A stretch of 32,410 nucleotides of DNA from Anaerolineales bacterium (lineage in GTDB: Bacteria; Chloroflexota; Anaerolineae; Anaerolineales; UBA6663). The stretch spans positions 1 through 32,410 of the forward strand of contig JBQTJD010000835.1 of the NCBI GenBank assembly GCA_052387475.1. Direction: 5' to 3'. Below, piece after piece: positions 5,990 through 6,586 of this stretch (positions are counted from its first letter, which is position 1; every line of letters starts with the position of its first letter). The position numbers and the translations under genes were made by a program. The notes below the pieces were generated by a model that saw only the letters and a list, made by a program, of their open reading frames with translations, did not search any database and had not been told where the DNA came from.

Positions 5990-6586
5990 ATGGACGACTC
6001 AACACTTGAATCTGCCCGTGCCTTTCACGGCCACAACTGCCCCGGCCTCGCCATCGGTCTCCGCGTCGCGCAAGTCGCACTGCGCGAACTGGGGCCGCAC
6101 TCACAAGAGAACGAGGTCACCGCCATCGTCGAAAGCGATATGTGAACGGTGGATGGAATCCAGTCGTTGACTGGATGCACCCTCGGCAAAGGCAATCTCA
6201 TTTTCAAAGATTACGGCAAGCACGTCTACACCTTTGTCCGAAAGTCAGATGGCAAGGCCATCCGCGTGGTGGGTCGCCCCGAGTATTGGAACGAGCGCAC
6301 ACCGGAGCATCAGGTTCTTCAGGCCAAGATGCGCGCTGGCCCCCTCACGCCGGAGGAGCGCGCGCGCTTCCTGGCCTTGCAGGAAGAACGCTCCCACCAG
6401 ATTCTCGAAATGCCGGAGGAACATTTGTTGGCGATTCAACCCACCAAGGCGCACCTGCCAAAAAAGGTGCGTCAGGCGCACTACCTGCTCTGCGACCAAT
6501 GCGGTGAACTGACGTTGGAATCACACACGCGCCGTCTGCAAGACCAGACCGTGTGCATCCCATGTTTTGAGAGCAAGGGAAGTTAA
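5990..6586 (+). CDS. FmdE/FwdE-family protein with a C-terminal zinc ribbon, putative selenoprotein
   Basis: The ATG at 5990 has an AAAGGAG Shine-Dalgarno. AFHGHNCPGLAIGLR is the FmdE signature. The in-frame TGA at 6143-6145 falls in VESDM-[TGA]-TVDGIQSLTGCTLGKGNLIFKDYGK, where family members have (E/D)xDxCxxDAIQxxTGCTxGKGNL. The C-terminus carries CDQCGE...CIPCF. Confidence 0.8.
6158..6176 (+). promoter_or_regulatory. SECIS-like hairpin downstream of UGA 6143-6145
   Basis: ATCCAGTC-GTT-GACTGGAT forms a perfect 8-bp stem. It begins 12 nt after the UGA and has the same GUU loop as the hairpin at 3795. Confidence 0.6.

Follow-up and report, generated by a model that had tools for sequence, protein, structure and literature searches.

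Canonical bacterial selenoprotein genes, of which E. coli fdhF is an example, carry an in-frame UGA that aligns to a cysteine of the homologs, and they have a small-loop hairpin directly 3' of it, with a G-U that starts about 20 nt past the UGA (PMC13188914). The model of the bacterial SECIS element (bSECIS) specifies a loop of 3-9 nt, a stem of 4-16 bp, a spacing of 16-37 nt from the UGA, and an MFE of at most -7.5 (PMC13188914); the loop has a G in its first two positions, followed by G or U (PMC13188914; also PMC13582414). Selenocysteine (Sec) and cysteine forms of these genes coexist in related genomes. The FmdE gene described here shares the aligned UGA, the hairpin, and the coexistence of both forms. 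It differs in that the FmdE family is apparently uncatalogued among selenoproteins and has no Rfam or NCBIfam model, and in the hairpin itself, whose loop is a 3-nt GUU and whose stem is unusually conserved in sequence.

The FmdE family (PF02663) is described through the structures 2GLZ, 2GVI, and 3D00 (PMC2954224). Cys55 of 2GLZ, or Cys61 of 2GVI, completes a tetrahedral site to which an FHGHxC motif contributes His, His, and Cys (PMC2954224, JCSG). In the crystals this site is occupied by Zn, or by mixed Zn/Ni in 2GLZ, and most PF02663 genes adjoin genes for metal-ion transporters (PMC2954224). The FmdE protein studied here has the FHGHxC motif, the D/Q/T motif, the CxxC...CxxC finger, and the metal-ion transporter neighborhood in common with these proteins. 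In contrast to them, the fourth ligand of its N-domain site is encoded by UGA (predicted Sec) and not by a Cys codon, and the gene is not located beside formylmethanofuran dehydrogenase genes; its neighbors are instead CooC-like ATPases, a Nik/Opp-type importer, and hydrogenase maturation genes.

A precedent for Sec as a metal ligand is found in the large subunits of [NiFeSe] hydrogenases, where Sec is a ligand of nickel. There, as is proposed here, Sec stands in for a metal-coordinating Cys of a nickel-related protein, and the suggested gain is protection from irreversible oxidation; the difference is that Sec here would reside in putative accessory or trafficking proteins (FmdE and CooC-like) and not in the catalytic subunit. 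The CobW-related selenoprotein (NF041053, UxxC), predicted in a 2026 inventory, is a metallochaperone NTPase with Sec in a metal-binding Cys motif. As a precedent, it comes closest to the CooC-like proteins with U-x-C and C-x-U motifs that are encoded next to FmdE; however, it is a COG0523 GTPase, whereas these are CooC/MinD-type ATPases, and it is unrelated to FmdE. The FmdB-family putative regulatory selenoprotein (TIGR02605, UxxU) is a listed selenoprotein whose similar name goes back to the fmd operon, but this small zinc-ribbon protein belongs to an unrelated fold and family and does not match the FmdE protein studied here.

FmdB and the CobW-related GTPase are the nearest entries in the May 2026 inventory, whose 119 prokaryotic selenoprotein families and subfamilies include neither FmdE (PF02663) nor a CooC/CbiA-type ATPase. 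The accessible text of BSepDB and deep-Sep names neither FmdE nor CooC, and the deep-Sep supplements list only FwdB. Literature searches on FmdE or CooC with selenocysteine, on FmdE with nickel, and on group 1h with selenocysteine returned nothing relevant; supplements and databases beyond the texts consulted may list such proteins. The selenoprotein FmdE family is apparently real, uncatalogued, and reliant on the standard bacterial mechanism; what appears to be new is the family, as the gene appears to work like any ordinary bacterial selenoprotein gene. FmdE would then join the list of prokaryotic selenoprotein families, alongside CooC-type ATPases.

The window analyzed here is a stretch of 32,410 nt from an Anaerolineales bacterium (contig JBQTJD010000835.1). 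Its G+C content is 59.6%, and many of its genes terminate at TGA as an ordinary stop codon. The initial annotation had proposed that a 51-codon segment is in frame with the ORF at 6149-6586 across the TGA at 6143-6145. This was confirmed: the ORF listing has 5990-6145 and 6149-6586 in the same frame, which runs from the ATG at 5990 through a sole in-frame TGA to the TAA at 6584-6586, and the FmdE profile spans the TGA. The gene has the following features:

5978-5983, forward strand: Shine-Dalgarno sequence AAGGAG, 6 nt 5' of the start codon of FmdE, as read in the sequence itself
5990-6586, forward strand: full-length FmdE-family gene of 198 codons, including the UGA (predicted Sec52)
6026-6040, forward strand: FHGHxC codons with His13, His15, and Cys17, which make up three of the N-domain site's four ligands, aligned to His15, His17, and Cys19 of 2GLZ
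6143-6145, forward strand: in-frame UGA, predicted Sec52 and fourth metal ligand, aligned to Cys55 of 2GLZ and Cys61 of 2GVI
6158-6176, forward strand: putative bacterial SECIS core hairpin, with the stem at 6158-6165 and 6169-6176 and the apical loop GUU at 6166-6168
6491-6565, forward strand: zinc-finger residues Cys168, Cys171, Cys189, and Cys192 (CxxC...CxxC), invariant columns of alignment A1

When the TGA is read through, residues 12-147 of the joined protein cover positions 1-132 of the 133 positions of the PF02663 profile (E = 9.8e-44). The initial annotation had staked its reading on the homology of the N-terminal 51 codons to FmdE. On their own, these 51 residues match profile positions 1-39 (E = 1.8e-11), and the C-terminal part alone matches positions 43-132 (E = 3.8e-24). 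The protein consists of an N-terminal alpha+beta core domain and a C-terminal treble-clef zinc finger, whose cysteines are equivalent to those of the corresponding finger in 2GVI and 3D00 (PMC2954224). Besides PF02663, it has a weak match to zf-dskA_traR (PF01258), and its PDB matches are 2gvi, 2glz, and 3d00. No NCBIfam model matches the FmdE protein, and there is therefore no PGAP selenoprotein rule for it.

The UGA was said to sit at the conserved FmdE cysteine, and the alignment agrees. Of the 17 full-length homologs in alignment A1, 16 have Cys in the TGA column, as do all three solved FmdE structures; the column lies inside the motif ETDM-C-GVDAIQ..TGCT.GKGNL. Also kept in the FmdE protein are F12-H13-G14-H15-N16-C17 and, in the second motif, D55, Q58, and T64 (D58, Q61, and T67 of 2GLZ). 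By analogy with 2GLZ and 2GVI, the window protein probably binds metal at the His2Cys2 site of its N-domain. Sec52 would replace the fourth ligand of this tetrahedral His-His-Cys-Cys site, giving a His2-Cys-Sec site. Judged from the sequence, we consider it highly probable that 5990-6586 is one FmdE gene of 198 residues with Sec at the fourth metal ligand. As Sec is a marker of functionally critical residues, a Sec fourth ligand would support the His2Cys2 site as the active center of FmdE, and the Sec position would be a functional pointer for this long-orphan family.

Of the 1,763 homologs that a database search with the FmdE protein retrieved, the top three, at 94, 79, and 74% identity, are truncated calls of 139-145 aa, and full-length homologs start at about 56% identity to the window protein. 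The contigs of the truncated homologs encode a 49-51 aa FmdE N-terminal fragment, followed by three bases and then the 145 aa ORF; the junction TGA is present in the DNA of L001 and L002. Gene callers split these genes in two, and they are therefore mis-annotated in public data. We scanned DNA with a degenerate pattern, a TGA followed by xxD[GA][IV]Q...GCTxGKGN. Among 185,579 species-representative genomes, this pattern identified five loci (two Anaerolineae MAGs, one Chloroflexi, one Heliobacteriaceae, and one Acidimicrobiales MAG), and metagenomes contributed 12 sites in 11 contigs. Every match has an in-frame FHGHxCPG...ETDM segment directly 5' of the TGA.

The TGA is kept in 14 distinct Sec-type sequences (17 loci, L001-L005 and L007-L018) with protein identities of about 50-95%; they come from Chloroflexota, one Heliobacteriaceae MAG, and metagenomes. 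The Acidimicrobiales sequence, L006, was left out of these 14. An exhaustive search of representatives added further 50%-identity clusters, with members that start at the TGA column and have the same IQSL signature. The Sec forms are related to one another, and in a rough, unsupported NJ tree they occupy several positions, interleaved with Cys forms. Pairwise dN/dS values against the window sequence, at dS near or above 1, are 0.10-0.33 for the 40 codons 5' of the TGA and 0.10-0.26 for the 45 codons 3' of it. Purifying selection on both sides of the TGA implies that both halves are maintained as protein.

L006 has the TGA and no hairpin; at the DNA level it barely differs from the Cys-form gene of Gaiella, and it clusters with the Cys forms. 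With no hairpin and Cys-form-like DNA, it was rejected as a Sec form, and the likeliest source of its TGA is a mutation or a faulty assembly. L006 is a natural negative control for a TGA without a hairpin.

The hairpin of the window gene, ATCCAGTC-GTT-GACTGGAT, was found as originally reported: the stem is a perfect 8 bp and begins 12 nt past the UGA, and the loop lies 20 nt past it. With the GUU loop, the 8-bp stem, the 20-nt spacing, and a local MFE of -10.8 kcal/mol, it fits every criterion of the bSECIS model. A hairpin is present at the same position in 14 of 14 distinct Sec forms and in none of the six Cys-form control DNAs. The stem has 8 bp in most Sec forms and is shorter or imperfect in L003, L005, and L008; in L005 it is re-registered by 2 nt and still closes the GUU loop. 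The loop of the Sec forms is a GUU triloop (GGC in L002). The mean local MFE is -11.0 kcal/mol in the 14 Sec forms (-14.0 to -8.4) versus -4.7 in the six Cys forms (-9.4 to -2.7; Mann-Whitney p = 9e-4); the Cys form that folds to -9.4 is L023.

The Thr codon ACT, which makes up 14% of the Thr codons of the window, occurs in 14/14 Sec forms versus 0/6 Cys forms (Fisher p = 2.6e-5). The Gly codon GGA (9% of the Gly codons of the window) is found in ten of the 14 Sec forms versus none of the six Cys forms. The Sec forms read IQ-SL-TG, with Ser-Leu encoded by TCG TTG, whereas the Cys forms read IQ-[YFV][LM]-TG. Third-codon positions are nearly frozen within the stem, whereas they vary in the flanks. 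Support for the hairpin comes from these comparative data and not from thermodynamics, because the folding energy of the single sequence is unexceptional (MFE z = -1.05 for the 63-nt FmdE segment alone; 32 of 200 shuffles fold equally well). The stem is 96.4% paired, versus 14-37% for slid partners, with zero two-sided changes; shuffle and covariation controls are uninformative for FmdE because the stem is nearly invariant in sequence. In the Cys forms, five to seven of the eight stem positions are already complementary, because the codons of IQ..TG are partly self-complementary. A SECIS covariance search had been suggested as a check; Rfam, searched at its gathering thresholds and with E-values as high as 10, gave no SECIS family, just chance sRNA matches, and the absence of an Rfam SECIS match is expected for bacterial SECIS elements.

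The initial annotation had also described two other recoded genes close by. Both in-frame TGAs are real, at 3779-3781 and 5550-5552, and each is followed by a hairpin; the hairpin at 3795, which had been likened to that of FmdE, indeed has the same GTT loop. Both TGAs lie in genes for CooC-like ATPases:

3446-4222, forward strand: CooC-like P-loop ATPase paralog 1, with the UGA at 3779-3781 in a U-x-C motif, aligned with Cys112 of CooC1; the start is probably the ATT at 3446
3795-3813, forward strand: SECIS-like hairpin of paralog 1, ATGCTACG-GTT-CGTAGCAT, loop GUU
4399-5229, forward strand: CooC-like paralog 2, without a UGA and without a CxC motif
5226-5978, forward strand: CooC-like paralog 3, with the UGA at 5550-5552 in a C-x-U motif, aligned with Cys114 of CooC1
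5565-5582, forward strand: SECIS-like hairpin of paralog 3, GCCGAGC-AGTT-GCTTGGC, loop AGUU

The C-x-C motif of CooC1 binds metal at the dimer interface. Paralogs 1 and 3 match CooC1 of C. hydrogenoformans (3KJE) with E-values of 7e-35 and 2e-22, respectively; both have a deviant Walker A P-loop and a CxC-type motif aligned to Cys112/Cys114 of CooC1. Orthologs of paralog 1 in other loci have either TGA or TGC/TGT at the Sec position. The stems of its Sec forms show compensatory changes, with ATGCTACG/CGTAGCAT in the window and ATACCACG/CGTGGTAT in L010. The TGA and hairpin of paralog 3 are kept in L001, L008, and L011.

At the three sites of the window, the distance from the U of the UGA to the loop G is 24, 25, and 24 nt. 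In the E. coli fdhF SECIS, SelB recognizes G23-U24, and the spacing in the window appears close to this. Sixty-four in-frame TGAs of the window have at least 45 open codons on both sides; among them, only the three FmdE and CooC-like sites have a SECIS-like hairpin, defined here by a stem of 7-8 bp, a loop of 3-4 nt that contains GU, and a spacing of 19-21 nt. Other TGA-interrupted candidates in the window that have SECIS-like hairpins were rejected as off-frame or antisense overlaps.

The operon holds three independent Sec/Cys pairs, each accompanied by a bSECIS-like element, and for this reason Sec decoding by the host is very likely. Genes for selA, selB, selC, and selD were not seen in the 32 kb window or in the fetched flanks of the loci, and ARAGORN reported no tRNA-Sec in the window and 17 loci. 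The names of the homologs of a housekeeping-type gene assign the window to Anaerolineae within the Chloroflexota, and Chloroflexota are documented Sec users (PMC13326102; PMC13582414). On the sequence evidence, the organism of the window very likely decodes UGA as Sec. The standard bacterial route would then insert selenocysteine at the UGA at 6143-6145, with the hairpin at 6158-6176 recruiting SelB that carries Sec-tRNA(Sec). We infer the actual insertion of selenium at the FmdE UGA from these comparisons.

Among the alternatives, the one that survives best, although we consider it improbable, is that the UGA is recoded to an amino acid other than Sec. This could be Cys, inserted by a tRNA(Sec)-like 'ReC' or SelC* together with SelB and the same hairpin, or Trp, Cys, or Arg through near-cognate read-through. 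SelC* (tRNA-ReC) systems are cited in PMC13582414, and Sec and Cys insertion at a UGA with a SECIS are indistinguishable by sequence alone. However, SelC*-type systems are rare relative to canonical Sec decoding, the lineage is a documented user of Sec, and the recoded state persists in three genes here, although a genome that used TGC instead would lose nothing by it. A genetic code in which TGA is reassigned (code 4 or 25) was rejected, since many ordinary genes of the window end in TGA.

It is very unlikely that FmdE is instead a split protein, in which translation stops at the UGA at 6143 and restarts at the GTG at 6149, and the resulting 51-aa and 145-aa subunits assemble. This GTG is one codon past the TGA, and gene callers annotate two ORFs in every relative. 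However, the restart codon is unconserved: the clade-B Sec forms read TGA GCG GTC GAC and lack any ATG, GTG, or TTG ahead of the hairpin. Inspection of the window sequence revealed no Shine-Dalgarno 5' of the GTG comparable to the one that precedes the ATG at 5990. A split would also place the break exactly at a metal ligand and leave the site one ligand short, and it leaves unexplained a Sec-form-specific hairpin that fits the bSECIS rules. The notion that a pseudogene or a sequencing or assembly error is responsible, with a Cys-form FmdE inactivated by a TGC/TGT-to-TGA change, needs only one base change and describes L006 exactly, but for the window it is effectively refuted by the recurrence of the TGA in 14 distinct sequences from independent assemblies, by purifying selection on both halves of FmdE, by a Sec-form-specific hairpin made from rare codons, and by the two further TGA-at-Cys genes in the same operon.

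Returning to the reading of FmdE as a Sec protein, the neighborhood of the gene includes the following features in addition to the CooC-like paralogs:

5-490, forward strand: [NiFe]-hydrogenase maturation protease (NCBIfam TIGR00072)
494-742, forward strand: HypC chaperone (NCBIfam TIGR00074)
2456-2737: ORF of 93 aa without a family match
6589-7611, forward strand: SAM-dependent O-methyltransferase (Dimerisation and Methyltransf_2), translationally coupled to FmdE and a conserved neighbor
7641-11238, forward strand: Nik/Opp-type ABC importer, with the SBP_bac_5 binding protein at 7641-9305
9378-10340 and about 10345-11238, forward strand: the two Nik/Opp-type importer permeases
11609-12364: HypE fragment, AIRS_C only, ending in PRIC

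The window thus begins with the maturation protease, HypC, an EamA-type transporter, a DUF6390 protein, the 93-aa ORF, and an HTH regulator. These are followed by CooC-like paralogs 1 (with U), 2, and 3 (with U), and then by FmdE (with U) and the O-methyltransferase; the SBP_bac_5 binding protein, the two permeases, and the HypE fragment conclude the order. The ORF at 11609-12364 was also considered as a Sec-truncated SelD, and this was rejected because it is a HypE fragment with a PRIC end.

That Sec and Cys forms would occur in the same neighborhood of related genomes had been raised as a check on the original claim, and both were found. In the Sec-form loci, FmdE is repeatedly located beside a CooC-like gene, Nik/Opp-type permeases and binding protein, a methyltransferase, and a protease; the Cys-form FmdE orthologs adjoin similar importers, or FecCD-type importers. 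The protease is also found beside the CooC/FmdE pair in L003, L007, L017, and L024. Genes for a [NiFe]-hydrogenase large subunit and a Rieske protein border the cluster in L003, L007, L017, and Gaiella. The closest structure to this large subunit is that of group 1h, 5AA5 (E = 9e-148, versus 2e-54 for the next class), and in L003, L007, and L017 its gene is an open frame without a TGA.

The recurrent importer, CooC-like, and hydrogenase neighbors suggest that the Sec form of FmdE (FmdE-U) handles a metal, most likely nickel. A tentative proposal, to which we give somewhat less than an even chance, is that FmdE-U is the cytoplasmic nickel-handling partner of the Nik/Opp-type importer and the CooC-like ATPases and supplies the group 1h [NiFe]-hydrogenase. 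Both nickel as the metal and the hydrogenase connection are inferred only from the gene neighborhood and the mixed Zn/Ni crystal site, and the metal could equally be Zn or Co. If it is nickel, the selenolate may provide a metal ligand that is more resistant to oxidation and more exchangeable.

A more extended version of this proposal, which we regard as possible though rather doubtful, is that FmdE-U, the CooC-like U-x-C/C-x-U proteins, and the Nik/Opp-type importer form a Se-dependent nickel delivery line for the group 1h [NiFe]-hydrogenase. The hosts of such a line would be aerobic Chloroflexota and Actinobacteriota, and their group 1h enzyme would be O2-tolerant and of high affinity. Selenolates instead of thiolates in the chaperones might survive oxygen and speed the hand-off of the metal. 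Were this so, it would give the FmdE family its first concrete function, that of a metallochaperone.

The window would then encode three selenoproteins in one operon, all with Sec at metal-ligand cysteines of putative nickel-handling proteins. That the operon adjoins a hydrogenase of the atmospheric-H2 type suggests that nickel trafficking in aerobes is tied to selenium in a way that can be tested. The UGA form of CooC is also present in Gaiella occulta (L024), a cultured actinobacterium, which makes an experimental test possible.

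Selenocysteine is predicted at different cysteines of one metal-binding motif in two CooC-like paralogs of the window. The motif is the CxC (Cys112 and Cys114) of Carboxydothermus hydrogenoformans CooC1 (structure 3KJE), and the relevant positions are:

3779-3781, UGA of the first paralog (U-x-C), aligned with Cys112
4399-5229, middle paralog, without UGA, reading GSTTAFRA where the CxC motif would be
5550-5552, UGA of the third paralog (C-x-U), aligned with Cys114

Because the arrangement is U-x-C in one paralog and C-x-U in the other, the alignment implies that the Cys-to-Sec conversion would have happened twice, independently. 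CooC-type ATPases are not among the entries of a 2026 selenoprotein inventory. Although the CxC motif is gone from the middle paralog, the gene itself is kept in L001 and L011 (two of the loci of FmdE homologs compared with the window) at about 90% identity, which argues for a degenerate but maintained gene rather than a decaying one.

Between the upstream stop (3422-3424) and the P-loop of the first paralog, no in-frame ATG, GTG, or TTG was found. The sole start options within 3422-3460 are ATT at 3446 and ATC at 3452. Since these are preceded by the Shine-Dalgarno-like AAAGGTGAGG at 3433-3442, a non-canonical ATT start is probable.

A UGA-type CooC-like gene is also present in a cultured actinobacterium, Gaiella occulta (QQZY01000001.1, locus L024):

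10016-10774, minus strand, UGA-containing CooC-like gene (HAGTG-U-LC)

The hairpin of this gene is ACGCUAC-CGUGC-GUAGCGU, and the public annotation splits the gene into ORFs of 106 and 148 aa. It adjoins the gene for a [NiFe]-hydrogenase large subunit (Pfam NiFeSe_Hases), the same arrangement as in the group 1h hydrogenase clusters of L003, L007, and L017. The FmdE of G. occulta is the Cys form. In L006, from an Acidimicrobiales MAG (JBBRXY010000154.1, oriented position 128), the FmdE gene has a TGA at the Cys column. We rejected this gene as a Sec form: a search for a SECIS-like hairpin in it found none, and at the DNA level it almost matches the Cys-form gene of Gaiella. The TGA probably arose by nonsense mutation or through an error in the assembly. 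L011 contains the following:

1353-2734, two tandem Sec-form FmdE paralogs sharing about 63% and 93% identity with the window protein, each retaining a TGA with the same hairpin

Other genes of the window, with their counterparts in other loci where these occur, are:

1644-2459, DUF6390 protein (E 1e-70), also in L017 at 639-1355
6589-7611, Methyltransf_2-type O-methyltransferase, translationally coupled to FmdE, also in L001, L010, L013, L018, and L020
11609-12364, C-terminal half of HypE (AIRS_C domain, PRIC at the end), with the AIRS N-domain missing

The O-methyltransferase is a recurrent neighbor of Sec and Cys forms of FmdE alike; TrmO_N and additional SAM methyltransferases occur in other Cys-form loci. 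The first ~40 residues of the hypE ORF resemble a HisKA_3 histidine-kinase segment (..LDIHDGPVQ..), and the ORF is hypE in truncated or chimeric form, or else the product of a join in the assembly; HypE is intact (365 aa) in the relative L001. The DUF6390 protein is encoded near a hydrogenase maturation protease in both the window and L017, and may be a further accessory gene of the cluster.

Further along the window, assignments were made solely by reading N-terminal sequences:

16034-16990, minus strand, carbamate-kinase-like gene
17039-20065, minus strand, two large ORFs
20123-23385, minus strand, two ORFs resembling membrane permeases

This stretch (16034-23385) appears unrelated to the predicted FmdE selenoprotein.
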